Positions 3,061-63,514 are shown, counted from the first letter of the whole stretch. The stretch is DNA of 63,514 nucleotides, filler included, from Intoshia linei (GCA_001642005.1; 8 parts of 8 records of this genome joined end to end with filler, not necessarily neighbours in it); one strand, 5' to 3'. Translations and numbers: made by a program. Notes: generated by a model not told the origin, from the letters alone.

Positions 3061-3160
3061 NNNNNNNNNNNNNNNNNNNNNNNNNNNNNNNNNNNNNNNN
3101 NNNNTTAATTAATTAANNNNNNNNNNNNNNNNNNNNNNNNNNNNNNNNNNNNNNNNNNNN
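3061..3160. other. Artificial contig spacer N44-TTAATTAATTAA-N44; also at 7687-7786, 18320-18419, 34972-35071, 56666-56765, 58863-58962 and 61715-61814
   Basis: Seven identical 100-nt spacers whose 12-mer core has stop codons in all six frames. Confidence 0.97.
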
Positions 3161-7257: not shown

Positions 7258-7686
7258 CAGTCGTGCAAAATAAACTGGCATGTCAGTTAAAGTTTAATTA
7301 AACTGTTAATAAATTTTCAAATAATTTTTAAATTGTAACTAAATTTTAAATGGCGATAATTAACAAAATTATAAAGCATGACATTGAAAATATTTCAAAA
7401 GCGGTATGAACCAATCTGAAATTTCGAGGCAAACCGGGGTTTGCAGATCAAGCGTTCAAAATGTTCTCAAAAAATTTAAAAATGGAGATAGAATTGAACG
7501 TAAAGTTGGTACAGGTAGGAAACAATTATTTAATTCAAGAGAAGAACGTTTAATGACACGAACCTCTAAATTAAATCTTTTTATATCAGCTAGAGAGATT
7601 AGAAAGTCATTGGGGTTCGCTAGTAGAGCGTGAATTGATACCATTAAACGCATTTTAAGGCGAAATAATTTATTCGGAAGAATAAC
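7258..7686 (+). mobile_element. Tc1/mariner 5' end with paired-HTH transposase N-terminus, cut by the spacer
   Basis: Begins CAGTCGTGCAAAATAA. ORF 7406-7633 reads MNQSEISRQTGVCRSSVQNVLKKF...GTGRKQLFNSREER (HTH plus GRPR-like motif); a stop follows. Confidence 0.8.
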
Positions 7687-8099
7687 NNNNNNNNNNNNNN
7701 NNNNNNNNNNNNNNNNNNNNNNNNNNNNNNTTAATTAATTAANNNNNNNNNNNNNNNNNNNNNNNNNNNNNNNNNNNNNNNNNNNNATTTATAATAAAGT
7801 TACAATAAAAACGACATTACTTATGAAACGACCTAATAACAGTATCTGATTAACATGATTATTCTATGAGTATTATTATGAGGATGACAATTATGGAATA
7901 GAATGGAACGAGATAGATTTCAAATGGTATTTTTTATCAATGTGGGATAAAAGTGGCATTTTTGAAATAATTATATAGCGGTCATCTAGACTTTGGGATA
8001 AAATCCCAACATCTAGCAATTCTGTTTACATTTCAAATTATATTTTAAATTTTGATATTTTTGAAAATATCAAATGTTTGTGAAATGTTTTCGTAATCT

Positions 8100-8520
8100 T
8101 TAGCTACTTTTATCTTTGAAAGCCATATAGATATAAAATATCTATGTGGAGATTTTTCAGCTTCAGACCGATGCATACCATGCGAAGTATTCATGGAATT
8201 CGTTGATATAACAAACTGCTGGTATTAAGATATAAAAGAATTGAAAAAAATTGAAATTTACAGATCAGTATTTCAACCCTTACATTCATGCGAAGAGATG
8301 GTATATCGAACTTTACAGGTAATGTCTTCAGGTATACCTTACATCAGTTTTCGATTCCTTAGCATAATATATGCATTAATATTAAGAAAAGTTTTTAATA
8401 TTCTTGAATTACATATACTGTCTCTCGTTATATATGGAGATAATAACATTATAGCCTGCCATTATGAAAACTTACCAACTCAAAAATAATTGTAAAACAA
8501 ATTTTGTTACTGGGTAATGC
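8100..8520 (+). pseudogene. Endogenous picorna-like virus RNA-dependent RNA polymerase fragment (motifs A, B, C)
   Basis: Motif A YLCGDFSASDRCIP (GD at 8148), followed by FVDITNCWY and a stop at 8226. Motif B HSCEEMVYRTLQVMSSGIP/(frameshift)TSVFDSLA (core 8322-8364). Motif C VIYGDNNII (8433; GDD changed to GDN). Order and spacing are those of Picornavirales 3D polymerase. Confidence 0.9.
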
Positions 8521-8950
8521 CATTGAGACGTGAATGTTACATTCAAAAGAATGTAACATCCTTAATAAATAAAATATATAAAAATCTGACCACTAGTGAG
8601 ATCAGAACTGTACTAGGCGAGCTTATCAATGATGAAAATATCCATTTAATTGCAGAACAGAGTGCACAGTAAATTAAAGATAAAAAACAACAAAAGTTTC
8701 CAATAAAGAATATAATATCTGAATTAAAAAATAATTTAATCTAACATACCGTGAGGCTCAGTAACTCAATTGATAAAGCAATCAGGATAATGACAGAGGA
8801 AAGTACTCAATAAAACGGACAGTAGAATTTCCGGTATCTAATCCGGCAATGCCAAGATCATGGTTCAGGTCGGTATGGAGGTGGTTGGAAACAAAACCTA
8901 ACATTATTACCTTTATCACAATTTACATTTTGTTGCAATTTAACCTTGAA
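8511..8950 (+). pseudogene. Decayed coding block, probably a viral non-structural (2C-3A-like) segment
   Basis: About 140 codons with few stops, directly abutting the RdRp piece. It ends in amphipathic/hydrophobic SWFRSVWRWLETKPNIITFITIYILLQ. No diagnostic motif is present. Confidence 0.4.
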
Positions 8951-9084
8951 TTTAAAATTTTTATCTGCTGTTTCTATAGTTTTAAATTCTCTCTCTCGCC
9001 AAATTCCTTATCTCACCAACTTTTTCTAAATCCCAAGAATGGCAAGTTATAGAGAGAGTACTGTACATTGTATATGTATTCTAT

Positions 9085-9526
9085 GGAGTGGCGGATCTAG
9101 GATTTTTATCTTGGCGGGCGAAATAATTATTAGGGGCCAAACTCATATAATTTATTTAAATTTGAATTTTTATATTATGTTTACAATATATGTTATGTAT
9201 ATTATGTTAATAATATATTTATATTTATAATAATTAATATTTTTTTTATGTTTTCATTTAACTAAATTTTTCAACAACTGCATCAAAATCGACATTTTCG
9301 GCAAGTTCTCTGTCGATTATCAACAACGTTAAGTCAGATAATTTAACTTAAACTGTTGTTAAACTCTAATCATAAATTAATATACATAAAACAAAAACAA
9401 TGATAACAAACATAATTCGATAAACGCTATTTGATGGGTTCTAGAAAAAATTTTTAATTTTACACAATGTTAAAATACAAATTAAAATATATTATGGCAC
9501 ATTTGTCATGCCAGGGGGCGCCCCTA
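9085..9526. mobile_element. MITE-like insertion between viral fragments
   Basis: GC-rich hAT-like ends (AGTGGCGGATCTAGG... and ...GGGGGCGCCCCTA) around an AT-rich core. No TSD was identified. Confidence 0.45.
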
Positions 9527-9845
9527 AACATATAGATAAACAGGTTTTGATATACTTACATGGCATACTTGAAGTAGGCAAGGCGGTCTCAGCTGATCAC
9601 ATATTTACCGACTTATTTAATTTGCTAGAAAAAGATATTTACTTTGCTAACGATAAATACTGTTACAACTCGCTATTACCTTACTTTGATACGTATTCAC
9701 ATCAACCTATATTCGAAATATCAGATCTACAAATGAGAGACAAAAATGTTCAAATGCACTCAAAGCAGGTGACGAAAGCTTATTTCCGCCAAATATAGCA
9801 GACTGCGCAGGCAAAGGTACAATTTACTTTACTTCTAATTTTTTG
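9527..9845 (+). pseudogene. Endogenous picorna-like virus 2C / superfamily-3 RNA helicase fragment
   Basis: Degenerate Walker A VLIYLHGILEVGKA (GxxGxGKS). Walker B region YFDTYSHQPIFEISD (Y.DGY..Q....DD). After a frameshift (9780-9845) LFPPNIADCAGKGTIYFTSNFL matches the 2C motif F.PPMA.LEEKG..FTSN. Confidence 0.9.
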
Positions 9846-10123
9846 TAATAATATTTAATAATAATTTTAATAATAGATAAAAAAGAAATATATAGAGTCT
9901 TTAAGGAAAGAGAGATAATACTTATTTTACCCTGGTAGACCTTTTTCCATTTTTAACGGAGAGGATAGTAGATTTTGCCTACCGCTATGGTAGCAACAAA
10001 AAGAATTTAATCAATAGTAAATCGTTACGGAGTGGAAAATACCCTAAAATGCAAAATATATTATTCATATGGTTTTTAAATAGACGCAAATCGGATTAGC
10101 TGAAGGATAAGACTAAACAAATT

Positions 10124-10230
10124 ATGGATAGAATTAATCCTAATTTCAAATTTAATAACTGTTGGTTGTCAAAATTTAAGAAAAGATTTTCAATTTCGAT
10201 CCGTAAAATGATAGGTTTGTCTTTGTTTGT
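10124..10230 (+). mobile_element. pogo/Tigger (CENP-B-like HTH) transposase fragment
   Basis: FKFNNCWLSKFKKRFSISIRKMIG resembles F.ASNGWL..FKKR..I..RKI.G. Confidence 0.7.
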
Positions 10231-10663
10231 CTCTAATTACGTACGAGATATAATTGACAGCATACGCGCAATCAAAAGCCGGGATGACGAGGATTATGCG
10301 CATGTGGGTTGCATCATGAGGGTAAGAAATACGAAACAGACACATATGACCTAGAGTGTCTAGATCAAGGATACACAACCTTTCCACCAATTCAGCCACA
10401 ATGCTACTTTTCTTATTGGTGCCTCTGCCACACAAAATTTACTTCGACATTGAGAAAGTTTACTCTGGAATCCAGAGTCTGGACCTAAATTTTAGGTCTA
10501 ATAAAATAGTTTTCTTTAAATTTTAATACATTATTGTATCAGCAAGTTTTAATTAATAATTTTCAATTAAAATTAATCCTTAATTCACTCATATAAATTA
10601 ATACCACATTTGTCATTTATCTGAATCGGAATAAATAGCAATACAGTAGTAGTAGGATTAATG

Positions 10664-11424
10664 CAGTGCTTCTCATGGGGGTAACTGGTCACCCTAAGGG
10701 GTGAATACGAAAATTTAGATGATTGTAAGCTACTCTACAAATTTCAACATATTTCATTAAATCATCCAATTTAATATAGTCTTATGAGAAAAAACAAAAA
10801 TTTTACCAACCCTTAAGGAAGAAATCTTTTTTTACCAATATTTTTTTTTAAAAATCCATTTTTACCAAAGTTTTAAAATAAAAACTACCCTATCTGATTC
10901 CAAAAGAAAAAATCAAATTTTACCAACCCTTAAGGAAAAAAATCGCTTTTACCAATATTTTTATGAAAAATCCCATTTTAATAAATTTTTAGATCAATAA
11001 TTCTTCTGATTGATTCCATAAGAAAAAACCTGATTTTAAAAAAATTTGAAAAATTTTAAGATTCCTTTTACTAATATTTTTATGAAAAAACATTAATCAT
11101 TAAGTTTTCGGTAAATAATTAATAATAATAATTGGACAACAGAAAAAAGTTCCATTAAAACCGATTTGTTCATACATTAGAGTGGAAGACATAAAAAATA
11201 TGTAAATAGTAATAATGACATAAAATAATATCAGTGACTGCCTTGATATTGTGTTCCATTCGCTAACATTTTAGAAACTGGGGCAAAGTCAAGAATGTAA
11301 CTTTTTGATTAAAATATTTGAAATAGACATTGAATAAAATCTTAATTTAACTTTTTATTTTGAAGTAAAATGATGTTATGTAAAACAAGCAGATGTATTG
11401 CCCACGGCCGCACGTGCACCCCTG
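10664..11424. mobile_element. hAT-MITE-like DNA with internal ~40-bp tandem repeats
   Basis: CAGTGCTTCTC... left end, ...GTGCACCCCTG right end, and repeated TTTTACCAACCCTTAAGGAA units. The two ends may belong to different nested elements. Confidence 0.5.
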
Positions 11425-11427
11425 ATC

Positions 11428-12138
11428 TAGATCAGATAGTTTCGGGAACTTTTAATACGAAATTGTAAAAAAGAATAACTGAGTGCAGAAATTTTGCAAT
11501 TCAGAAGTTGTTTAGATAACATGAAATCATTTCTAATTCTAGGAATTCAAGATCTGATGACATCTATAACACCAATAAAACATGCGGACCGAAGGAACAA
11601 TGGAAAAATAATTGTTCTACCAACAATTTGAGTTTCAAACTACAAGAAATCGATAGACCTCGCTATAGACACCACGATGCAAAACCGACAATGATTGAAA
11701 AATTAGCGCATTACGAACTTTGTTGTGGTTACAATCACACCGAAAAAAAAGGATGAAAATAGCATATTGATTCGTCGCTAGCGAAATCGCTCAACCTGGG
11801 TCTATACTTGACGGTTACACAAAAGAGGAAGGCATAGTGCTTTATATCCAAACTATAATCGAGAAGTATCGGTGACGCGTTTGCTGATAAACACAGTATC
11901 ACACGCAAACAGAACTGATCTTGTCAACGAAATTATATTTAACAACGTTGGGATAGAGAACAACGCGGGATTAGGGAACAACTACAGATTAATAGATAAT
12001 GCTGAGGATGGAGATTTACCGGGTGTGCAAATGCCAGACTTTGACTTATGGTCATCACACTACGCAATAAACACACGGAAAAATTCAAGAATCAACAAAA
12101 GCACATTGACATTTGTCCAATTATATGGGTTTTTGTGA
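11428..12138 (+). pseudogene. Unassigned GC-elevated intronless coding-like block, probably viral
   Basis: Long frames with sparse stops and frameshifts (...DRPRYRHHDAKPTMIEKLAHYELCCGYNH; IAQPGSILDGYTKEEG; ORF 11872-12138). It abuts the capsid region. No motif was recognised. Confidence 0.4.
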
Positions 12139-12139
12139 T

Positions 12140-13285
12140 AGTTTATACATTTTAGGTCATATTTCAGATCCTACTTTTAAAAGGATACCCACTTTGAATT
12201 TTATAAAAAATGTAGATGCATGGGAAACTAGCAGTACAGAAATTTGGCCACAAATGCAAAGCGAAGATAAACTTGATGTTACAAAAATAGGTAACTTGGA
12301 TAAAACTGCTAAAGATGATAATTTGACAAAATTCGTGGAAGTGCAACCTGAGCAAATAATTACAGATTCTATCTCTGCCGTTATTAGATAGTTCATTCGA
12401 ATGGAGACGAGAATATTCACTTTTCTTAGAAAGATTTTTTCTTCTTGAAAAGTTAATGTTCGATTCCATAATTTCATCAAGTACTCCTTTACTACGTTTT
12501 AATCATGTTTTGTACCTTTTGAATCAGAAATATATACAACAAAAAATTTATCAAGCTTGTGCAATAAGATTTGATATAGAAATCCAACTTAGGGTTGTTG
12601 CCACAAAATTCCATTATGGACAAGTCATGGGATTATTTAAGCCAGGTTTATTACAAAATCAGATAATTGCTTACAGCACTGGTTCCAGTTTAGTACAAGA
12701 AAACTGGGGACCGTATGATTCAGTGCACACTCAGTTAATGTAAAACAAAGTTATATCTATAACTCAAGGTCCTCATGTTTCTATGACATTAAAGTGGCAT
12801 TATCCTTATAATTATGTCAAAACGCGAGAAGGTGTTGATGATTCTTCTAGAAATTCAAGACAGTTAAACAATTTGTACAGGTTTGCTATGTTTGATATAT
12901 AAATTGACTCAAATAGAACCAAGTGATATAGATAAACTACAACTCTTAGTATGGGGAAGGTTTAAAAATGTAAGACTGTTTGGATATTTATTCAATGAAA
13001 TTACACCTCAGAAACTTACCTTGACAGGTCCTACAGCTGTTGGTCAAATGAAAGACAATCAAGATGAAGTAAAAAATATGGATTCTTCATAGTTAAGCAC
13101 TGTTACAACAATTGTAAATACAGTAGAAGTGGACTTAGGACATATTACTAAATTTATTTCGTATTTAGCTATGATGGGTTTTTCTTATCCTAGAAATGAA
13201 GAAGGTCCTAAAAATATAGCCAATAACACTTTTACTACATCCAATTCAGTTGGACCATCAGGAGCTATAACTTTATCCTATAGAG
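12140..13285 (+). pseudogene. Endogenous picorna-like capsid polyprotein: VP2, VP4 and start of VP3
   Basis: IWPQ/MQSED (M at 12254), NLTKFVE, LFLERFFLL, jelly-roll strand AIRFDIEIQLRVVATKFHYGQVM, LKWHYPY, VWGRFKNVRLFG, AVGQ/MKD (13048) and the VP4/VP3 junction AMMGF/SYP (13171-13191; cf. dicistrovirus FGF/SKP). Several stops and frameshifts. Confidence 0.88.
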
Positions 13286-14370
13286 CAGTGGTTACCAAAT
13301 GAGGGCCTACAGAATCTGAGGGGGCCGCAGATTTAAGAAATATTTTAAAATTAAATTAGAATCGTTAACATTAATTAGATTTAGTATTTCATATTTAATT
13401 AATATTTTCTTGAAATTTGGATTAATTTAGGATTTACGAACTTTACGAGTACATTAATGAAAATACAACTGTGAAGAATTTTGTTAGAGAAGATAGCATG
13501 TTCGATGGGAATGATAATGACTTCGTTTTAGATGCATACAATGACTGTTTTGAAAAAAAATGATTTGGCTAATGATGAGTTCCACCAGCATATAAAAATG
13601 ACATGACAAAAATATAGAGCATCCACTGAAAAATGAAAAGGCGCATTTTTTTTCTGGTCGAGTTCAAAAATTTTTTTTAGATTCAAAAGCATGCTCTTCG
13701 CTGCTGATTTATGAATTTACAAAAATAAATGTATTGCCACTATTCATCTTTAATTACGGTATACAATATTGTTCATTATCGATCACGCGACAAAAGTGCT
13801 CTAAAGGAATATATTTTAGGTATTTATCAGTGTTAAAACCATTTGTTTTTAAAAAAACTTTTTATATATTATTTAAGTCTAGTCAACATAATATTTTCAG
13901 TATGTACAAAGGAAAATGATTAACCGACAAAGAAAAGAGGCAATTGATATTCTATTAAAAGAAGCGTACGGTCAGGCCGAAATTGCCATTAAAATAGAAA
14001 GAAGTAGAAAAATTATTCAAACACATATTAGAGTGTCTATCTAACAAAATTTGCCATCGATTAGGACGTCCAGTGAAGCTGTAGATGGAGTTTTTATTTA
14101 ATAGCGAAAGCTGAAGATCAATACAAAGTCACAAAAAAATAGAAAGAAATGATTTATACGCGACTCTTTATATTGCCAGCATTTACTGCAAAATAAAAAA
14201 TTTATACAAAATTAAAGATAATCTGGACCTTATTATTGGACATTGAGAAAAATTGATGATCTTGTAGAATGGTTTGTGGGGCTTACCTACAAAAAAATTA
14301 GTAAAAAGGTTTGAGATGATATTTCATTTTTCCTAAAAATTCTTTTATTCCCCCTACTGCGGCACCTGTC
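13286..14370 (+). mobile_element. Composite transposon insertion splitting the capsid region: hAT-like left end plus Tc3-like HTH remnant at ~13902-14080
   Basis: Starts CAGTGGTTACCAAA. Internal decayed MYKGK*LTDKEK/AIDILLKEAYGQAEIAIKIERSRKIIQTHI...GRPVKL. The right end and TSD are not resolved. Confidence 0.65.
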
Positions 14371-14394
14371 GGGGGTTTCAAAATATTCTTATAA

Positions 14395-14811
14395 TCAGAT
14401 TATATGATTACTCAAGTGTTTACTGAGGAGATTATTAAAGGACCGCGAACAAAATATAGAACACCCATTATAAATGCTCTTGGGTTGGAAATGACTAAAA
14501 CTGATTTATTGGTTACAAGTCAAATGAATGATGGAAATGCAGATATATTGTTGCACAACATTAGACCTAACGTAGGCATTTTATCAAATTTAAGAACCTA
14601 TTGGTATATTACCGCCTTATGCGATTTGACTATATTTTTTGTGAAACATGGAGTTACGTCATTAAGTGAACAAATAACAGCTGTTTTACCTGGAAGAAAT
14701 TCATTCGTTTTTACTTCAGCTGAAACCGTCCATATTTTGTCTAGTGATAATCACCTTTGGGTAGTTGATCTTTCTGTAATTAATTTAAGAAAAAAATTTG
14801 ATTTAGATTAA
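14395..14811 (+). pseudogene. Endogenous picorna-like capsid VP3 core fragment
   Basis: RPNVGILSNLRTYWY...LTIFFVKHGVTS...VLPG...WVVDLS resembles the VP3 pattern PT.LG..S..F.YWRG....F..VKT.FHS....F.PG...VIDL. Confidence 0.7.
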
Positions 14812-15739
14812 ACAAAAACCCAAAAACAAAAAAATTGATTTGACCCTCTGTGAAATGGTGTATCGCTCATTTTCAATTTTTATAGGTACAAATGCTCTAG
14901 GGTGCACGGTCTGAAAAACATTGATTTATAAAAATATCATAATTACCATATTATTTAGCATTAATTTAATTTTTTTAGAAATAGTTTTGTTTTAATTATT
15001 CTCAACATCTTAGATTGATGAAATATCTGATAGAATTATGAAATAATTGTGTAAAAATTTTTTTAATGTTGGGACTCGCGAAATATGTAAAATTGATTTT
15101 TTGGCTTTCACACGCCATGTGTTTGGATCACCATGACTTATGACATTAATATTCATAAAATAGGCATTGGAGTGGTACCATTATACATTGTAATAAATTT
15201 CAGTTAAATTCATTAAATTTTAAGTAAATATTGTAGTATTTTTCAAACATATTACAATATAAACTCTACTATTTTCCTACAATCGAATCTTGAAATAGTA
15301 GTTACATCTGCTTCATTTCAAAGCTATTACTTCTAGCTTCAAAGTTTCTACTACAAGATTATTTAAAGAAATATCATGTATAATACATACCTAAACAATG
15401 TTCAGTGAACATGTTATTATTACCATTAAAATTAATAAAATTATAAATCTTGAGCTTACGCTTAACCAAACGATCGATTTTGCTTCCAAAGTCTTCCATA
15501 TTGCTATCTTTCCAATCATATTGCTTAAGTTGTTTCAATTCTTGATAAAAAAGTAACATTAAAAAACAAGTAAATTTTTTTAGCCACTAAAATGTGACAA
15601 ACTAACTTATAAATAAAATTAAAAATTACTGGTCATTTTGAAGGTTAAATTGTAAATTTAAAAATATTTGAATGTTGAAATAAAATAAATGAATACAATT
15701 TAATGTTAATATTTACAAAAATGCAGATGTAAATCTAAT

Positions 15740-16237
15740 TTAAATAAAAGTGTAATTCTCTTCAATATTGACTTGATGATATCGTTTCATAAAAGTAACA
15801 AAGGTAGATATCCATCTATCGGTTTGGAGGTAATACTCATATTGTGATAAATTATTTTCGCAATTGTATATCCCTGAATCTGATAAAGTGGTGGGTTCAT
15901 CAAATTCGGTATTGTAAATCATTAACTCTTCCATAAATATAACGTTTTTGCACTTTTTGCTTTGACTTTTTTCAGTTACTACCATGTAGGTTACCCCATT
16001 TATTTTTGATAAAAATTCAAATTTATCTAAATGCCATAATTTAAAAAAAATAAAATACAAATACTTAAGATTAATCTAATACAATGTATAATATATATTA
16101 CCAGTTCCAATTTTACGAATATTGTTAGCTTTCAAGTTTCTTTCAATCTTTAATTCTGTATTTTTTTGAAGCAATCTTTGAATTCGTAATAAATATTTTG
16201 CAATCATTTTCTTGTCGGTTGTGTTTAACTTGTTCAT
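15740..16237 (-). CDS. Hypothetical spliced host gene (may continue to ~15300)
   Basis: ATG at 16237 (MNKLNTTDKKMIAKYLLRIQ...), a GT donor near 16101, then the 106-codon frame 16060-15740. No recognisable domain. Confidence 0.35.
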
Positions 16238-17106
16238 ATTTTTGAAAAATGAAAATATCTATTCAATGTTTAATTTCCGTACTTGTTTTATTGTAACTTT
16301 TGTAAAGTGTTAATTATTATCGGTATTGATAAATATGGGGGACACTCCCATTATTTGGATTAAAATTTAATAATTGTTATGATATCGAATACATTTTACA
16401 TAAATTGTGTACAAATAAATTGCTTACTACTCATCCATTCATTTATGAATTACATTTATTTAGTTCATTCAATCATTTCACAAATACTCCAGACACAATC
16501 CGATTGTTTAATTAAATATTAATTTAAAATCAAACAACATTAAAATTTAAAAACTTTCTACAAGACAAGACGTCAACACTTGAAATAATTAATTCATAAT
16601 ACAATGCATTGTATGAAATGTGAACAAGTTTTCTCATAGAAATTAAATATTTTTTATTTTTACATCGAATGGAAAACTATCTGACAAATACTTTTGAAAA
16701 TGTCAGTAAAATAAATTTTTTTGACTTGGTCAGTTATTATTTTATTAGAATAAAAGTATTAGTGTATTTCATCATTAGCGAATAGTTTCCAGCAGATTAG
16801 TTACATTTGCATATTGCTGAAATTAACATTTTAACAACAGATAATTTGAAAATATTTAATATCAAAATTGTTAAATTAGTAATTTTACTGATGTAAATTC
16901 TACGATTTAATAGACTAGTGAAAAGAATCAGAAAATTACAATTTAACCATAAATACAAATTTTAATAGTGCCTTTTCAGCTTTTTGTAAAATTTGAGGGT
17001 CTTTTCCATTAAAGGTGCAACTCTTTTGTTGGCTAAAATTTAAAAATTATAATAAAAACCTGTACGAAACTGCATCCCAAAATGAAATTCCAAAATAAAT
17101 TATTAG

Positions 17107-17352
17107 TCAATTTCTGTAAGTCATTAAATGCGAATAATAAAACAAAAATGTACCATTTCTTTTCCCGTTTTTATTGGTTAAGGAAGATGGATTTGAAAGT
17201 ATAATAGAACTGTCTTTGTTAAAAGCATATTTACGTCGCCAATTGGAAGAAGTATCCGCATTTAAATTAATTGGAGTACTTTTACTAGAAGTTAATAACG
17301 ATTTTCCATATCTGTTTTTATTACGAAATTTGGGATTGGATGAATAATCCAA
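17107..17352 (-). CDS. Possible exon of an unknown host gene
   Basis: Open S/N/K-rich frame with short-intron-like AG/GT borders nearby. No family recognised. Confidence 0.3.
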   Translation of the reverse strand: MDYSSNPKFRNKNRYGKSLLTSSKSTPINLNADTSSNWRRKYAFNKDSSIILSNPSSLTNKNGKRNGTFLFYYSHLMTYRN

Positions 17353-17689
17353 GGTAATTAATTTACTTTTATCTAAATTTAATTAAAATTATACATACTT
17401 TTCATGGTGGTTCTACAAGTTCGAGGTCACCCAAAATGAAAAATAGGCATTTAAAAAAAATCTCAAACGATGCGTAGTGTCATAGCCCAGTGATTCTCAA
17501 AAAATATTGCGCCCCTCTAACAGTATATTTATAATTTGAGACCCTACCATGTGATAACGGTGCTATCCTTCCTTATTTCTTAAAAAAATTGTCTATAAAA
17601 AATATTTAATTTAATAATTTTTCTTACATCTCACATCACCTCAGACTCTGTATGTCCCAATTTGGGAACCATTGATATATTCCTAACCA

Positions 17690-18117: not shown

Positions 18118-20526
18118 CTATGATTTGTATGTATCATAATTAGGGCGATTATTTTTTTAACTAGGACAAATTTTGATATGTTCATACATCTAAAATTATT
18201 ATCATTGTGATTATAATTTTAGGTGTATTAATGGCTAATTAAAATTTGATTAAGTTAATAGCGTTAGAAAGTTAAAATAATATTTTCAAAAGTTAAATTT
18301 TATTTTTAAAAGTTAAATTNNNNNNNNNNNNNNNNNNNNNNNNNNNNNNNNNNNNNNNNNNNNTTAATTAATTAANNNNNNNNNNNNNNNNNNNNNNNNN
18401 NNNNNNNNNNNNNNNNNNNGTTTTCTGTAAAAAAGGATTGTAAGTATAAAAACGTAAAAAATACCTACAAGTTGGATTTAGAGACACTTAATTGATGTCG
18501 TTGTCTCGGCCTTATTTTGTTCATTCTATTTTGTTCTATTCACTTAATTTGTTTTTTTAATAAACTTATTTATACCACTCTACTTTTACTGTTTTACAAT
18601 ATTCATTTTGCACTTAAACTTTATCTTCCACCGCCTAATTCATTTTTACACCGTATACTAATCTATACAATTCATTTCTTTATTTTGCTAAACATTGCAC
18701 TGACTTACATTTAGCACTTAATTTTTATTTTTCGTACACTTGAGGCTCTTATGGGTATATTATAATGTAACGAAGGTGATATTTTGTTACTCTTGCTGTA
18801 GGTCATATAGCTCTGTTCTTTCCCAACGTGCTTTCTTTAAAATAAAAAAAAATACGAAAATTGGCTAAAAAATTATAAAAAAGTGGTTTTTGCCTAATAA
18901 CTTTTTGTTGTACCCCAAGAGAAAAAAGTTCTATTAGGACAGATACAAAGTTGACTATTCCGCTCATTATGAGCTCAAAATCGACTATCTACGATGAGCG
19001 TATCAAAAGTTATAGCGATATTGTCAATTTTCGGCCCCGCTGCCACCTCTAAATTTTTGGTTTTGGTGTATATTTAGACTATTTGTCATGATATGTGAAC
19101 TACCATTTTTGTTTGCTGTGAAATCACTCCACCCTACTAAATATATATCCAAACGTTACTATATTTATGATAATAGATTGGATTCTACCATATTTGATAA
19201 CATTTAGACGGGAATCATCACCTGCAACATTACAAGTCTCACTTAGAGGTGAAATCAAGTTTATAATTCCATTTCAAATAAATGGGACTAATTACCCCGA
19301 TATGGAGAAAACTTGATACATTTATGGATTTTGATAGGTCGAAAATGTATTTTAGAAAAAAGCCAGTTGTAATAACACATTAGAATGAATGCTTAACCTT
19401 ACCATGAGATTAAACTTTAAAACAAAGAACAAAATTTAGTCTTAAATGTAAATTAATTAATAAAAATTAAATGTATATTTGATTTCAAAGTTTTCATTAT
19501 AATTCATATACAGCAGGGTCGGCAACCTTTTGAATCTCGTGGGTCACTTTTTTACATCAAAAAATTATACAGACCCTGTTTTTGAGAATCTACACATAAT
19601 ACATTTCAAATAAAATTAATTTACATATTTACTTAAAGGACAACCAAAATTATTCTGGGGCCACTAAGTAGTTGTAATTGTCGACTCCTCATGTACATTG
19701 TACATAAGTTAATTTACTTATTATTAATAAGTAATGTATTTATAAACAATATTATTATTATATTCTTAACAATATTTTTATAAATAGATATATACAAACA
19801 GGTGCTTGAAAATCCAGAAGTAGACTATATAAATTTTTTTAAAATGACGATTAAATAAAACAAATAAATAAAAAAACATAAATCAAATCAAAATTCTGTA
19901 TAAATATGAATAATTAAATATTCATGAAGTTTTCAAATAGCTAGTAGAATAAACTTGTATTCGAGATATTGTTAAATGTAATGGATTTAAAATCGAGAAA
20001 TCTCTATTTTGTAAAATGAGTACTAGAGTACTATTCATTATTTTGAATAATGAAAACTAATGACTAGAATTTAAATTTTTTTTAATCTAACAAATTTGAT
20101 CAATTTATATGTATATTATACATTGTATAAATTATAAAATTCTTTACCCGTTGTCCATTTTAATTAACATACTTTTAATATCTTTCTTTTTAGATTCTGT
20201 GAAGTTATTTTTAATAGAAATTTGATAATTTTGTAAGGAATTATCAAGTCGAGATCTAGTAATGAACCAGTAAATATTCGTTATCTTATAAAATAATACG
20301 TTTTCAAGTTTAATTTTGTTGGAAAAATATAAGATATGATTTGCAACATTTTTCATCAAAAACATCATTTTTGTCAAATAAAACATTATAACTCATTATA
20401 ACACTGCGATGTATCTTATTGGTTAATTTTTGCTACATTAGTTGAGAAAAGATAAAATTAATGGTAGAAACACTAAATCTCAAATTTTCTTAAATAAAAC
20501 ATTAAAAACTTTAATAAATCTATTAA

Positions 20527-34755: not shown

Positions 34756-35071
34756 TACACCATTGGTTAATAAAATAATTTTTAAAAAATTGATGGCGAT
34801 ATAATACTACCTACAATAAGGTGTTTCACATTTTACAAATATTTTCATTGGTAATAACTAGGTTACAGTTTGTGAAAGTTGTATTGTAATGATTCAATAT
34901 TTGAAAGTATTACTTTAATCAAATGTTTAAATTTAAAATACGTTTACAATTAAGTTATGTTGATTGTGATTNNNNNNNNNNNNNNNNNNNNNNNNNNNNN
35001 NNNNNNNNNNNNNNNTTAATTAATTAANNNNNNNNNNNNNNNNNNNNNNNNNNNNNNNNNNNNNNNNNNNN

Positions 35072-50870: not shown

Positions 50871-53101
50871 TTAAATTTTTGGTGGTAACAGTGACATATT
50901 GCTATAAAAATATAAATGAATAATAAATAACAACATACAGTGTATTCTGATAATGCTTAATAACTGTATATATAAATTTGTACTGACTATCTGTTTGAAC
51001 TAGACCACGTCTAAATTTTCTAATATCTTTAACAATATTGAATATGTCTATAATACTGTTTGGAACTAAACTAACTAATGATATATACAATAAAGACTAC
51101 CTGAACTATTCAAAATTTTTAAAATTACATCACATGCTATGAATGTACCCGTTCTACCTATACCTGCACTAATCTTGGCTATAGTTAATTAAAAAAATAA
51201 TAACCTGCAATGAACCAATACAATCGACTCGTCTTTGTGATACAATTCGTTAGCAAAGCTCAAAAAATTTAAAAACGATTCAGGATCAACTGGTACTCCA
51301 TGATCTGGCCAAGATGTGTACTGTAATTGAGTAACAACAAATGAAGATGCCTTGATCATAAAATGATTTATTTCTATAAAATTAATATTAGTTACCTTTG
51401 GCAAGCTGACATCTATTTTGATACGACGAACGGTTGAGTGATCAAAGGCAGCACAACTAATTGTTTCAATTGCCATCTTTCCGTAATCTGTAGTTTGGTA
51501 AACCATTTGCTTCCCTACATCTGGCCAATATCTATAGCATTTTATCTAAAATAAACATTTAATAAATCATAATAAAAATTAAATTATAATTTAAAAATTA
51601 ATAATAATATAATTGATAATTATCTAGCATAAAATAGTATTCATTAAAATAACGCGTAGAGATTCAACTTCTTGAGTAATCATGAGGATAAGTTTACATT
51701 CCTGTTCAAATATCATGGACCAAAAATTTACCACAGTTGCTCTCAAGCAACCCTGTGAAGCAATGTAATTTTTAAACAATATATTTCGTTCTTTCAGTTT
51801 ATTTAGATTCTACAATAAACGTTAAAATTAACTAAAACAAATAATAATCCTACATTTCAATTTTTAACAATAGAAATAATTACATTAATATTTATATAAT
51901 TTGCATTAATGTAATCTGATGCAATGGTTTGATTAAGGTTGTTTTTAATTTCATTATTGTGCACAATAACACGACTGTGGTCATCTACATTTTAAATTAT
52001 ATTAAAAATACGTTTTAAGAAAATGTGAATTGACAATCAACTTTTCCTTTATTTACATAATACAATAAATAAAATGTAATAATAAAAGATTACATGGTAA
52101 AATATTTCTATATCGATTTTTGGTTTTATTTTCTGCATTCGTACCAGCAGCAAAACCAAATTGGGTATTAACAAAGGTATCCTTTTCGAGTACCTATAAA
52201 CTACAATATATGGATCAAAATTAAAAACCTTGTATTCATTTTGAAAACCGCTAACATTTTGTTCATTAACATTTTCTAACCAAGTGTAATATTCTGAAAT
52301 TTTATTTACATGAAAGGAGGTGAATAAAACTGGCTAAAATATCTTTAAAAAATAAAGAATTATTTTACGTTATATAAATGTAACTTTAAGTTATTATAAT
52401 GTAATAAAGGGTTTTTTTGGTAGTGGACAATCAATTGATCAATATCATCGAAATCGTAATCATTGGGGTCCAATTTATATTTACCATTCTAAGAAATAAA
52501 ATACAAATATTATCAAAACAATTTACCTCCATCACTATGGCAACATGGTTAACTTTACCTTCATTAGAATATGAAATTATTAATTCGCCAGGATTATCTT
52601 TGCATGTTCTTAATAAATATGCACCCGTCATACCATATTCTAAGATTAAATTTTCGCTCTGAAGTTTAGGTAATACGCCATGATAATACCTAAATTTCAA
52701 CAATATACTGAAATATAATAATGTGTGAATACCGAATGTTTGGCATTTTCGAGTACATTGGTGTTCCTAATTGTAAGGTTCTACCATCAGTTGTTTGTAA
52801 GTATTTTTGTTCAAGTAGGTTCATGACATGGTCGTAGACACTTAAATTTTTTACGTTTTGATTACTTTGTAGATCCAAATTTTTGCATTTAAAATGAGTT
52901 ATTTTGGAACCCACTCTAAAAAGTTGGAAAAAACCAAGTGTTATAAAACCTTAACGACAAAGTGTAGGCACCGACAACAGAGCTACTATTTCTTAATATA
53001 AAAGATCCGTTAAAGCCGTCTGTAAGAAGTAGTAATTCTGCCTCTTTAGAAGAGATTTGATGGTAAATTCGTGCAATATCACTAAATTAATATTGTCATA
53101 T
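50871..53101 (-). CDS. PTPN11: SHP2/corkscrew-like tandem-SH2 protein tyrosine phosphatase (5' end unresolved)
   Basis: N-SH2 IYHQIFSKEAELLLLTDGFNGSFILRNSSSVVGAYTLSLR; C-SH2 YYHG...GAYLLR; KNRYRNILP; DYINANY; YIASQGCL; YRYWP; WPDHGVP; VHC|SAGIGRTG; LVQTDSQYKFIY. Confidence 0.9.
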
Positions 53102-54224: not shown

Positions 54225-56976
54225 CTGTAAAGGATTGCTAATAGTGAATAACAGCAATTTGATGTAAGCTATTAATAAAAATTAATATAATAATTTATTG
54301 AATTTATTTTTTTGGTAGAATTATTGAAGTCCCTCGGCAAAGCTTGGTACTGTTTATATGAAATAAAATAATTGGTTATTTAACGATTCACACAAAATTA
54401 TTAATTAATAATTATAGAAAAATTAGTCAGTAGCATTATTATATTTTCAAGTACTTCGTACAATAGTCCGTTTGCCGTGTGCCGTTTTTATAGTTTAGCC
54501 GCTAAATTTAACGTTTATTCATACTTTTTTTATCATAAAAAATTTGTTTAAAAAAATGTTCAGAAAACAATTCTAACCTAAAAAGAATCGTTATATCGAA
54601 CATGTAACACGGTTATAAAGAATGAATATTGCAATATAGAAATTAGATATAAATTATTTAATTAACTTTATTTGAACAGTTTAAAAATAATTGGATTTTG
54701 TCCAAATTTTTAGTAAACACTATTTAACATTTCACTGAAAACAGAAAACTGATTTGTAAAAAGTATAAAGTTTAGAAAGGTAGCATACACGACATACATT
54801 TTTTTACAAATACTACCTCTTTTACTTATGAGCCATTCTCTGTTACAAATTGAGAAAACCACAAATTTAAATTATATGCTACTATATTGCTTTTTACGTC
54901 GTATATTCATTATTCAATCTATTTCATAACCTTAATTAATTAAATATTTACAAGAATCATCAAAAAACATTTTTTATAAAATTTTATAAATGTAAAAGAA
55001 AAATAAATAGATTATCAGTCTATTTACATTATATTAATTGAATCTTTAAACTAGCATATTACCATATGATAATAACATTTCTTTATTATTAAAGTTTAGT
55101 AACTAAACCATTGCAAATCAATAAATTCAAATTATATTTACTTACCATAATTATTGCAATATAACTAGAGCCCACACTGTTACCCGACATGACATGTTTA
55201 ACGAAACATAAAACCACCCAATAATAAATGAAACAACCCCATAAAATGGTGGAAATTAATTAAATGCATAATACAAAATGTACTGTATTTTAAATTTATT
55301 CCACTTGTCTGGATGGGATACAATGTATAGTATAGATGATTATTTTTTAATAAATTAAAAAAATTTATCAAAAAGTACATATCAAACATTCAAAACGTTA
55401 AAAATAAGGAAGTTAAAATTGTAAAAAAAATTCTAAACAATTTTCATGATGAATTTTAAATTTTCCCTTTATTGAAAATGTGTACGGATCACCTTACAGT
55501 ATAAAATAAAAAAAATATCAAATATACGTACAGGCTAATTGCTATTTAACGGAATTCGTCGCTAACGGAATCAAATTCCTGACTAACGGACTGTGAATTT
55601 TTCTGAGGTACAAAAATTCTGTTAAATTTTAACTTGAAATAACTAGCATCATAATTACACTGAAGCTTTTTCTGTTCAAATTATGATTAATATTTATTAT
55701 AATAATGAATGATTATTAAATATATGAAATAACATGACCTCCAAATATAGGTTAAGTGGAATGAAAATCAAAATTTTTCCATTGGTTTAATGCAGTCATT
55801 TCAAAATTTGGTTATTGATCGTGTTTTTGAAAAAAATATTGGAAATAGTGGAATTTTTTTATTAGGTTTCGTAAAATCGGATTTTTCAAAAAAATATAAT
55901 AAAAATCCAGTTTTCCCTAAAGCTTGAAATGGTATTTTTTATTAAATTTTATTAATGGTAGGATACAAGTGAGATTTTTGAAATAATAATGTAACGGTTG
56001 CCTAGGCTTTGGGATAATCAATATCTAGAAACTCTGTAATAAATATTAAAAATTCTCCTATAAAAATAAACAAAATTTGATAAAATTTTTTTTATATTTT
56101 ATTTGAATCTCACTAACCCAAGCATATAATTTTGGACCCCAATCAAGAACTATTTTAATGTATACAATGTATACATATTTTATAAAAAATACCGTTAACG
56201 AGGACGAGTAATAGATTTATATACATTTTTTATGAAATTAAAGGAAGATAAAATACAAAAATATTTTTTAAAACTTTCAACACGATTGTATAATATGAAA
56301 TAAAAATTACACGGTTGTATATGTTTCATTGCTTACCATTATCTATTTCAATGACATAAGTTTTGAATAAGTACTTATCATTTAGTTAAATTAATATTTG
56401 TAAACTTTTTAAATGTATTCTTATTTTAATCTAACGTTGCTATAAACCCCAATAATATTTACTTATCAATATGACGAAATTTTGTATATCAGGTAGCAGG
56501 CAGATTAAAATACACATTGACAATTAGCATATTAAAGATTAAAATCGAAAGATATCACAGGTGTTGGATATCTTTTAGATCCTGAGTAAATAAAATGAAA
56601 TATAATTCAAATTTATATATATATATATAAATAATATTATAATAATAATAATAAATTATATATAANNNNNNNNNNNNNNNNNNNNNNNNNNNNNNNNNNN
56701 NNNNNNNNNTTAATTAATTAANNNNNNNNNNNNNNNNNNNNNNNNNNNNNNNNNNNNNNNNNNNNATTTTTTTATTTCGAAACTATTTTATTAAAACAAA
56801 AAATTGAAATAATTAACGGTCCAAGAATTAAAAAAAAAGATTATTGTTATACAACTTATTCGAGTATAAATAGATATAAAAATTCAACCTCAGAAATCTA
56901 CGTTTTGTCGGTGGAAGAACCGCTTGGATTTGAAATTTACAAAATAAAAACATGGACGATTTAATTGATAAATTTA

Positions 56977-58800: not shown

Positions 58801-59361
58801 TCAATATTCAATTAATATTAAATCATGAGTTCTTAACCTGGGGTGCCGGCACTCCAGAGGTGNNNNNNNNNNNNNNNNNNNNNNNNNNNNNNNNNNNNNN
58901 NNNNNNTTAATTAATTAANNNNNNNNNNNNNNNNNNNNNNNNNNNNNNNNNNNNNNNNNNNNAAAATTAGATTATAATTTATTTTAGTTTTCCTTATATT
59001 TCAATATAATACAGGTCCTCTAAGGTTTTGTCGGGGTGTATGTTATTAACCTCTTACACAGTTTCCTCTCTTCACTTGCTATAGATATAATTTTTAAAAA
59101 TGTATGGAACCACTGGTGTAGTGTCATGAAAAATCAGTAATATGTTGTAATTATAATACAATTGGTGTTGTTTATAAGTTGTTATAATTTTTTAGCACTT
59201 TCTGTGGTCGAATTTCTAATAATTTGGGAATGGCTCAAAGAAAACACCGAAATGGAATTAAAATGAATACTAAGACATTCAAATATTAATCGCAGTCAAT
59301 AAAAAAACATGACCAAGTGTTGAGACAACAATTTATATATTTTTTGTATTGACTACTTTAG

Positions 59362-61449: not shown

Positions 61450-61814
61450 AAAATCAATCAACTTTGAAACGTAATTCAAATGTGCTACCAAATGATTTAA
61501 ACCGTTGTTAAATTGTAAATTAAATTTTGAAAGTATACCATTTCATAATGTCATTTATCCAATTCATTATAACTAGAGTCGACAAATGCAATTTTTTATG
61601 GCACTAAAAAATTTCTAGTACTAAAAGTTACTAAACAACAAGACAACAATTGATGCAAAATTCATTAAATTTATTTGAATTGAAAATGAAATAGTCATTA
61701 AAATATTAATCATTNNNNNNNNNNNNNNNNNNNNNNNNNNNNNNNNNNNNNNNNNNNNTTAATTAATTAANNNNNNNNNNNNNNNNNNNNNNNNNNNNNN
61801 NNNNNNNNNNNNNN

Positions 61815-62699: not shown

Positions 62700-63514
62700 T
62701 TGTAGTTATTGTTGTATCATATGCTGAAAATCATCATCTAAGTTACTATTTAGCGGGTTAGATTCTAATTCGTTATTGACTATAGCTTGGTTATCGATTG
62801 ACATCATCTCGATATACTAATTTTTGGAATTTATAAATGCTTTTTTGAAACAATTTATTATTTATTATTATTAACATTTCTTTAAAACATTCTCCCACGC
62901 CATGAGAATATACGAAATACATTTGTATAATTTAAATTTTATTAATAAATTTTGATAATCCAGATCTTCATATTATGGGGTTTCCATTTCAATAAATATA
63001 ATCATGTTAATACTGCGCTTGCATTGTTCCTTGAACGAGTGTATAATTTCTTGATCGAGTGATTGTATCTTAGAAGTCGTATTCAGAGGTAGAAAAAACA
63101 ACTCTATATTCAAATATTTAGTACATTTTGAGTGAACAGTTGCGGTGTCTAGAATTAAAAGAATTTTTCTATCTTTATTTTTTATCCATAAATTTAAGTG
63201 TGACAATCATGATTTAAAAATTATTAATGTCATACACGATTTTTTGTTACTTTTATAGGAAACATTTAATTTTTTAAATTCTAAATTCTTAAAACATCTA
63301 AGGTTTTTAGATTTTCTAATAATTAATAATTTTAACTTCTCGCTTAACATCCTTACACAAAATAGTATAGTTATACGTTTGTTGCTGAACTTACCACATG
63401 CTTTATTTACATTCGATAATGTTACCGTTCTGTTAGAAGAACATTTGTAAAACAATCCAAATTCATCACAATTAAAAATATTTTTGTGGTTATAATTAGC
63501 AATTTTTTTTATGT
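62700..63514 (-). mobile_element. pogo/Tigger DDE_1 transposase pseudogene
   Basis: NCDE..LFYK; GKFSNKRITILFC; KSNKKSCMT; ILLILDTATVH; FFLPLNTTSKIQSLDQEIIHSFK; AW; NCFKK. In-frame stops. Confidence 0.9.

Follow-up and report, generated by a model that had tools for sequence, protein, structure and literature searches.

The genome of the orthonectid Intoshia linei (GCA_001642005.1) contains a contig in which we identified four fragments of a picorna-like virus polyprotein, non-overlapping in viral coordinates, lying on one strand and out of order. We propose, with moderate confidence, that this cluster is a mosaic endogenous viral element (EVE) built from the polyprotein of one virus, and that it is likely a non-coding fossil which is passively transcribed. 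What was observed directly is the homology of the fragments, their order and strand and the lesions in them, along with the gene order of the nearest viruses and the spliced RNAs on both strands. The window, that is, the whole stretch of DNA analysed, is 63,514 nt long and consists of eight contigs of this genome. The cluster lies on the contig at 7787-18319 (10,533 nt), which has artificial linkers at both ends; all positions given here are those of the window. A preliminary description, made from the sequence alone, had covered positions 8100-13285 and had suggested that the locus may be a small-RNA archive transcribed from the minus strand.

Viral fragments in the contig

Relatives of the polymerase (Pol) piece were searched by phmmer against 1.84 billion representatives, using positions 8100-8672 as the query with stops read as X. 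We obtained 25 matches at E<=1e-3, of which 5 were at <=1e-10. The top matches were the polyproteins P0001 (2453 aa), with the best E of 5.5e-26, and P0002 (2436 aa), both from 8.2-8.5-kb contigs, and the third was P0003, 'Cryptolin calicivirus 1'; as a group, the relatives are picorna/calici-like polyproteins from invertebrates of aquatic habitats. P0004, P0010 and P0020, also among the 25, are repeat proteins with multi-stretch matches and were rejected as false positives. The 25 proteins were mapped on the window by tblastn, and the viral blocks were numbered following the residue order of P0001.

The first fragment in the contig is the Pol fragment (block 3; 8100-8483, plus strand), in which P0001 residues 1382-1507 aligned to 8100-8480 with 45% identity (E 1e-28) and only motifs A-C of the RNA-dependent RNA polymerase (RdRp) are present. 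An in-frame stop at 8226-8228 interrupts it, with profile matches at 8100-8225 and 8253-8483. The match ends at residues 1507-1520, while RdRP_1 of P0001 spans 1260-1604; the fragment is thus truncated on both sides, the N-terminal ~120 RdRP_1 residues and everything after motif C being gone, and the preliminary description had rightly noted that the Pol piece stops just after motif C. The helicase (Hel) fragment (block 1; 9535-9923, plus strand) runs from the Walker A region onward. Residues 297-373 of P0001 matched 9535-9759 (65% identity, E 4e-23) and residues 356-433 matched 9693-9923 in another frame (36% identity, E 6e-8), with a frameshift near 9750. The capsid fragment (block 4; 12083-13287, plus strand) corresponds to P0001 residues 1617-2054 (summed E 1e-73; profile E 1e-43) and comprises the first jelly-roll domain and part of what follows, with frameshifts at ~12370 and ~12897 and stops at 12741-12743 and 13090-13092. 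The fourth, which we call the pre-protease fragment (block 2; 14434-14796, plus strand; P0001 residues 900-1021, 39% identity, E 5e-23; profile E 8e-16), falls beyond the range described earlier and is newly found here. The catalytic 3C part was not found in the window, as the preliminary description had stated for the 3C protease motif; the pre-protease fragment overlaps the Peptidase_C3 match of P0001 (1005-1121) by no more than its ~17 leading residues.

A profile of 11 polyproteins was compared with all 2796 six-frame open reading frames (ORFs) of at least 15 aa in the window. It gave 10 matches, all on the plus strand and within 8100-14796, and one extra match that was noise (E=3.4). The earlier observation that the viral pieces are co-oriented among transposable element (TE) debris therefore extends to four of four pieces, with no match on the minus strand.

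The capsid assignment was examined with an AlphaFold2 model of positions 12372-12899 (stop read as X, 11-row alignment), which had a mean predicted local distance difference test score (pLDDT) of 71 and a predicted template modelling score (pTM) of 0.65. In the PDB all 47 matches listed for this model were virus capsid chains, 46 from Picornavirales and one from a norovirus, and both picornavirus and dicistrovirus capsid chains were matched; the best E was 5e-3, with none at <=1e-3. Pfam on single ORFs gave viral calls below threshold, which would not suffice by themselves: RdRP_1 reached E=0.1 over positions 227-351 of the 450 in its profile, RNA_helicase reached E=0.0018 on the Hel piece (19.2 bits vs a cutoff of 21.5), and the capsid piece matched no family. 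Phmmer of the Pol, capsid and Hel pieces against PDB sequences reached at best Q-beta replicase (E 0.36), and in a PDB profile search with alignment A1 all 60 matches listed were polymerases, with nothing on the capsid. Word-based searches found no longer relatives of the capsid piece and, for shorter relatives of P0001, two short fragments that were uninformative.

The fragments are out of order with respect to the nearest viruses

We scanned eight of the related polyproteins for domains. RNA_helicase lay N-terminal of RdRP_1 in all eight, Peptidase_C3 between these two in seven of eight, and an Rhv capsid domain C-terminal of Pol in two of eight. The natural order in the nearest viruses is Hel-protease (Pro)-Pol-capsid in one ORF. 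In the window the blocks follow one another as 3 (Pol), 1 (Hel), 4 (capsid) and 2 (pre-protease), so that the earlier claim of scrambled viral pieces holds against relatives in which Hel always precedes Pol and the capsid follows Pol. A virus with a natural Pol-Hel-capsid order, which the preliminary description had named as a case that would refute its reading, did not occur among the polyproteins scanned. A superfamily 3 (SF3) helicase, a 3C-like protease, RdRP_1 and a jelly-roll capsid, which together mark a Picornavirales-like donor, were found in the relatives and, for the capsid, in the fold of the window fragment.

All four fragments have P0001 and P0002 as their nearest relatives, with identities of 45, 67, 49, 47 and 42%. 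P0001 and P0002 themselves share 60, 67, 56, 40 and 45% in the corresponding stretches, a similar level that points to one viral lineage.

Decay and mode of origin

Homology to RNA-virus proteins, embedding in host DNA and disrupted coding capacity were all found, as expected of an EVE. The embedding is supported by a spliced host gene on the same contig, by a run contig at 14836-16651 and by spliced joints that link the pre-protease fragment to this gene. Across 2293 viral nt we counted three in-frame stops (8226, 12741 and 13090) and three frameshifts (~9750, ~12370 and ~12897), while the pre-protease fragment has neither a stop nor a frameshift. Viral sequence makes up 34% of the 6697-nt span and represents ~823 of the 2453 polyprotein residues. 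On a plain reading, the EVE is young to middle-aged, and the roughly equal decay of all fragments suggests one period of origin.

The four pieces are co-oriented, for which the chance is 0.125 under independent random orientation, and they do not overlap in viral coordinates, for which the chance is 0.28 for four random pieces; the pattern is real, yet statistically not strong alone. A single insertion that was later rearranged and repeated capture are indistinguishable from the present data. The order 3-1-4-2 is not producible by one tandem duplication with loss. It would need two block moves, a concatemer in which about two genome lengths lay head to tail and lost alternating parts by deletion, or template-switched cDNA. 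We suppose that viral RNA was reverse-transcribed by the enzyme of a host retroelement, that it may have entered the germline as pre-rearranged (template-switched or concatemeric) cDNA or through a few closely spaced events, and that repeat insertions and deletions would later have broken it up.

A second Pol-derived fragment, P0011 (A3Q56_06003), is present on another I. linei contig of 14,058 nt. It shares 58% identity with P0001 residues 1289-1465 and 57% (38 of 67) with the Pol piece of the window, and it extends further N-terminal than that piece. Because P0011 and the window Pol piece overlap in viral coordinates, at least two copies of the viral genome contributed to the host genome; as a second fragment of the same lineage, P0011 further indicates that the entry of this virus group into the I. 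linei genome was no isolated accident. RdRP genes of viral families were already reported in the I. linei proteome by a 2019 survey, which treats the gene as horizontally acquired (PMC6396948); the RdRP gene concerned is probably A3Q56_06003. Our literature search found no paper combining endogenous viral elements with Intoshia.

Transposon and repeat debris between the fragments

About 90 nt past the Hel fragment lies a 5'-truncated remnant of a pogo/Tc5-type transposase helix-turn-helix (HTH) at 10010-10210 on the plus strand (HTH_Tnp_Tc5 at 10100-10207, E=5.4e-5, 23.5 bits vs a cutoff of 22.2), with an in-frame stop at 10097-10099. A weaker Tc1/mariner-like N-terminal HTH remnant lies at 13916-14081 on the plus strand (HTH_38, E=0.025); by eye it contains a GRPxKL-type motif, which we take to be a Tc1/mariner signature. 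The preliminary description had placed pogo and Tc3 remnants on the viral strand. This stands for pogo; the Tc3 HTH (7388-7633) sits on the preceding contig, so that its orientation relative to the viral pieces is arbitrary. No reverse transcriptase (RT), integrase, gag or protease family was found at E<=0.01 in the 88 ORFs of at least 40 aa of the contig (41 plus, 47 minus), a Pfam search on ORFs that non-coding long terminal repeats (LTRs) would escape, and none of the families on the minus strand rose above noise in the same 88 ORFs.

Three bins (8843-9546, 10251-11658 and 13067-13418) draw many contigs that are >=90% alike, and the summed depth of run X2, which is not a copy number, is 180-440 in these bins vs 13-21 over the viral fragments. 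This suggests that they are dispersed repeats. Within the repeat-rich gap 10251-11658 we found a ~117-nt tandem repeat in three copies at 10790-11108 (families D1/D2; strand not applicable). An inverted pair at 11338-11369 and 14182-14213 was considered as transposon ends and taken as chance, the match being 78% and AT-rich, with the Tc1-like HTH at the wrong end. An X2 joint 11415>13323 that skips the capsid segment was also set aside: its shorter side has 26 letters, GGCCGCA is common to both ends, and it probably comes from another repeat copy. The positions 11406-11415 and 13323-13332 may mark another copy of the repeat into which the capsid segment inserted.

Spliced RNAs cross the locus on both strands

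Four public sequencing runs, X1-X4, cover the stretch. The RNA character of X1, X3 and X4 was inferred from intron-shaped gaps in their contigs, which were seen in these three runs and not in the DNA-like X2; the strand was read from the splice ends (GT..AG, plus; CT..AC, minus). Parts uncovered in X3 and X4 were not counted as evidence. X1, X3 and X4 also give a flat, unspliced cover over the unique segments, at a depth of ~7-15 in X1, which could be RNA or DNA of either strand.

On the plus strand, a long intron (7927-13430; joint 7925>13430, GT..AG, X1, shorter side 28 letters) removes Pol, Hel and capsid. An alternative intron (7927-9628; joint 7925>9628, X1 and X3, shorter side up to 98 letters) has its acceptor inside the Hel fragment, and a 60-nt intron (9817-9876; joint 9814>9875, X1 and X3) lies within Hel-derived sequence. 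The splice sites thus interrupt Hel-derived sequence, and positions 9629-9816 serve as an exon of a plus-strand RNA. None of the observed spliced forms contains an ORF of more than 66 aa. The preliminary description had proposed that the locus may be transcribed from the minus strand. Contrary to this, the splicing observed across Pol, Hel and capsid is that of plus-strand, sense RNAs.

At the start of the contig, a 33-nt segment (7807-7839) recurs in X1 and X3 contigs of high depth whose sequences part from the window on either side of it; in X3 a GT follows it, and very many alike contigs are present in X2. This segment could be a dispersed repeat or belong to a spliced-leader-like gene family, and the exon downstream of it, which ends at 7926, provides the donor for the plus-strand RNAs. 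Our literature search found no report of an orthonectid spliced leader in Intoshia.

On the minus strand, spliced joints in the region of the cluster were seen only between 15256 and 13800. Two introns, 13801-14689 and 14774-15255 (CT..AC joints 13800>14690 and 14773>15256, X1, shorter side 27-30 letters), flank an 84-nt exon, so that pre-protease positions 14690-14773 form an antisense exon. The plus-strand exon from 13431 and the minus-strand exon to 13800 overlap at 13430-13800, which is non-viral, and the convergent RNAs could pair there.

Further along is a highly expressed, spliced host gene (15460-17372, minus strand; CT..AC joints in X1, X3 and X4, contig depth 112-775), for which no Pfam family was found. 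Its introns are 15541-15629, 16027-16101 and 17033-17153 (gaps 15540>15630, 16026>16102 and 17032>17154). An exon of this gene ends at 15460 with a GTAAG donor on the minus strand (15456-15460), and the next exon is outside the contig and the window. Since this donor joins an exon absent from the contig, the viral cluster may sit in an intron of the neighbour gene of at least 7.7 kb. Such a long intron would be unusual, the other introns here being 60-121 nt. The letters past the loose ends (15460, 16273, 17372, 7807, 7839 and others) were sought in the window, and 0 of 16 were found.

These joints also bear on misassembly as an explanation for the scrambled order, in which single-copy viral unitigs would have been chained wrongly via dispersed repeats. 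Independent run contigs cover the unique segments and end at the repeats (8988-9282, 9944-11299 and 13371-13432), as such an error would allow, and the capsid unitig (11299-13371) is placed by the deposited contig alone. However, spliced joints connect position 7925, in the Pol unitig (7811-8988), to 9628 in the Hel unitig and to 13430. Moreover, minus-strand joints connect 13800 to 14690, in the pre-protease unitig, and 14773 to 15256, and the DNA-like contig 14836-16651 runs into the host gene. A place for Pol upstream of both Hel and the pre-protease fragment on one strand is thus supported independently of the assembly, which already breaks viral collinearity, and we regard misassembly as very improbable. 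In the fossil interpretation that we favour, transcription would be passive, the fragments being carried along in the introns of neighbouring spliced RNAs or used by chance as their exons.

The pre-protease fragment and the gene model A3Q56_06785

The pre-protease fragment lies in an ORF (14395-14808) that is open for 138 codons, for which the probability in random sequence of the same composition is ~9e-6. Over 99% of its length, this ORF shares 93% identity with P0043, the I. linei hypothetical protein A3Q56_06785. The public model A3Q56_06785 (190 aa, 13916-14911, plus strand) joins three parts, the Tc1-like HTH remnant being followed by the viral pre-protease fragment and then by a short exon; residues 1-35 of P0043 map to the HTH remnant at 13916-14081, which is exon 1. 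Because the run joints listed over A3Q56_06785 are on the opposite strand (CT..AC), the model appears to be an artefact of ab initio prediction.

The open frame and the annotation as a protein in the public record could also be taken to mean that the ORF is a domesticated viral protein fragment expressed from the plus strand. However, the polyprotein stretch that it represents (residues 900-1021) lies between Hel and the protease, is non-catalytic and has no Pfam family, the gene model of the ORF is chimeric with a transposase HTH remnant, the joints over it belong to the other strand, and the other three fragments, which are of similar age, are broken. We therefore hold domestication to be a highly unlikely explanation. 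With this locus the public 'hypothetical protein' A3Q56_06785 can be corrected: it is a chimera of a transposase remnant and a virus.

Fossil or source of small RNAs

Several observations weigh against our interpretation of the locus as a passively transcribed fossil. The density of lesions is low, and the pre-protease frame is open; the latter is equally well explained by a young insertion. The four viral pieces have the same orientation as both TE remnants. Transcripts of both strands traverse the locus, and the minus-strand RNA is antisense to the pre-protease fragment and comes from the side of the highly expressed gene. This antisense layout is the one reported for EVE clusters that produce PIWI-interacting RNAs (piRNAs) in mosquitoes, in the accessible part of that work (10.1101/2022.08.22.504762), and a supplement on I. 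linei lists PIWI-like, Dicer and Argonaute proteins (PMC6468455).

The same observations would fit a different reading, in which the locus is a source of small RNAs, piRNA-cluster-like or of endogenous small interfering RNAs (endo-siRNAs), and would act as a heritable antiviral memory against the cognate picorna-like virus. Read-through or intronic minus-strand RNA from the neighbour gene, together with the plus-strand RNAs, would then be processed. Consistent with this reading are the shared orientation of the viral pieces and TE remnants, the spliced minus-strand RNA antisense to the pre-protease fragment and the possible location of the cluster in an intron of the neighbour gene, as well as the convergent plus- and minus-strand RNAs that meet at ~13430-13800. 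As far as the accessible parts of the sources go, the machinery listed for I. linei also fits: one PIWI-like protein (Table S3), an ALG-1-like Argonaute, Dicer, Drosha and Pasha (PMC6468455). Mosquitoes offer the precedent, with unidirectional arrays of EVEs and TEs in Aedes (10.1101/127498) and a biogenesis in which read-through from an upstream gene places EVEs antisense (10.1101/2022.08.22.504762).

Against a small-RNA source, splicing over Pol, Hel and capsid was seen in sense RNAs (GT..AG joints), none of the 88 contig ORFs of at least 40 aa contained an LTR or RT remnant, and the locus occupies no more than 6.7 kb of a 10.5-kb contig. The co-orientation of four pieces, with its chance of one in eight, would be expected anyway from one event. 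An intact piRNA pathway is also doubtful, given the blank HENN-1 cell in the I. linei supplement (PMC6468455) and the extreme reduction of Tudor genes in Orthonectida (PMC12147562), as far as these sources are accessible. A literature search on Intoshia and piRNA gave, judged by title and the start of the abstract, nothing on orthonectid piRNAs among the matches listed. Altogether, a small-RNA source appears unlikely, although it deserves some weight; the piRNA-cluster reading is a plausible analogy and not a result.

A more specific form of this analogy is that an orthonectid, an animal among the most reduced and with a compact genome, carries a transcribed, co-oriented mosaic of one picorna-like virus downstream of a highly expressed gene or in one of its introns, that antisense RNA from this gene would be processed by the single PIWI-like protein or by Dicer/Argonaute into small RNAs against the virus, and that heritable antiviral memory of the mosquito type would have arisen independently in Spiralia; we consider this quite improbable. 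If it were true, a clean small-RNA case in a stripped-down spiralian parasite would reveal which parts of the pathway are truly required. EVE mosaics as possible templates of small RNAs are documented mainly in arthropods. As a fossil, the locus is a dated trace of a virus, as yet unsampled, that belonged to orthonectids or to the animals they parasitise, and a place where new introns and exons arise inside virus-derived DNA.

Other features of the window

The window is AT-rich animal DNA with a GC content of 0.21-0.31. Seven linkers of the form N44-TTAATTAATTAA-N44, which contain stops in all frames, join the eight contigs at 3061-3160, 7687-7786, 18320-18419, 34972-35071, 56666-56765, 58863-58962 and 61715-61814; because the joining is artificial, order and orientation across these points are biologically meaningless. 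On the other contigs we observed SH2 and tyrosine-phosphatase exons (SHP-2-like; 51192-52766), a WDR35/TULP4-like exon (229-546) and a remnant of a DDE_1 pogo-type transposase (63210-63512), all on the minus strand. Rfam (E<=0.1) and ARAGORN gave no match in the window, so that no known non-coding RNA or tRNA-derived element was detected.

Comparison with known systems

The donor virus belongs with the unclassified group of Beihai sesarmid crab virus 2, 'Cryptolin calicivirus 1' and Sphaeripse virus, with P0001 and P0002 closest. Viruses of this group have an intact single polyprotein in which Hel, a 3C-like Pro and RdRP_1 are followed by the capsid. In contrast, the I. linei window retains 34% of the polyprotein, in the order Pol, Hel, capsid and pre-protease, with stops and frameshifts and within host DNA. 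The RdRP gene reported earlier in the same host is Pol-derived like the piece in the window, whereas no cluster of fragments is described in the accessible part of that report (PMC6396948).

Like the clusters of Aedes, the I. linei locus has short fragments of RNA-virus genes co-oriented among TE fragments (four of four viral pieces and two of two TE remnants on the contig are on the plus strand), with an expressed neighbour gene upstream on the strand antisense to the fragments. An LTR or RT remnant is a hallmark of EVE capture in mosquitoes. The I. linei locus differs here, since its TE debris is pogo/Tc1-like with non-coding repeats and no LTR retrotransposon remnant was found in it. It also measures 6.7 kb, not tens of kb, and derives from one virus lineage, not several families. 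Finally, it belongs to an orthonectid, for which a single PIWI-like gene is listed and the Tudor set is reduced.

Clusters of out-of-order fragments of one virus are also present in penaeid shrimp genomes, where they derive from infectious hypodermal and hematopoietic necrosis virus (IHHNV); that virus is a DNA parvovirus and its host an arthropod. Non-retroviral EVE mosaics as such were already known. For the I. linei locus, the preliminary description of the viral pieces is confirmed, and it is extended by the fourth fragment, the donor virus group and the transcripts on both strands.

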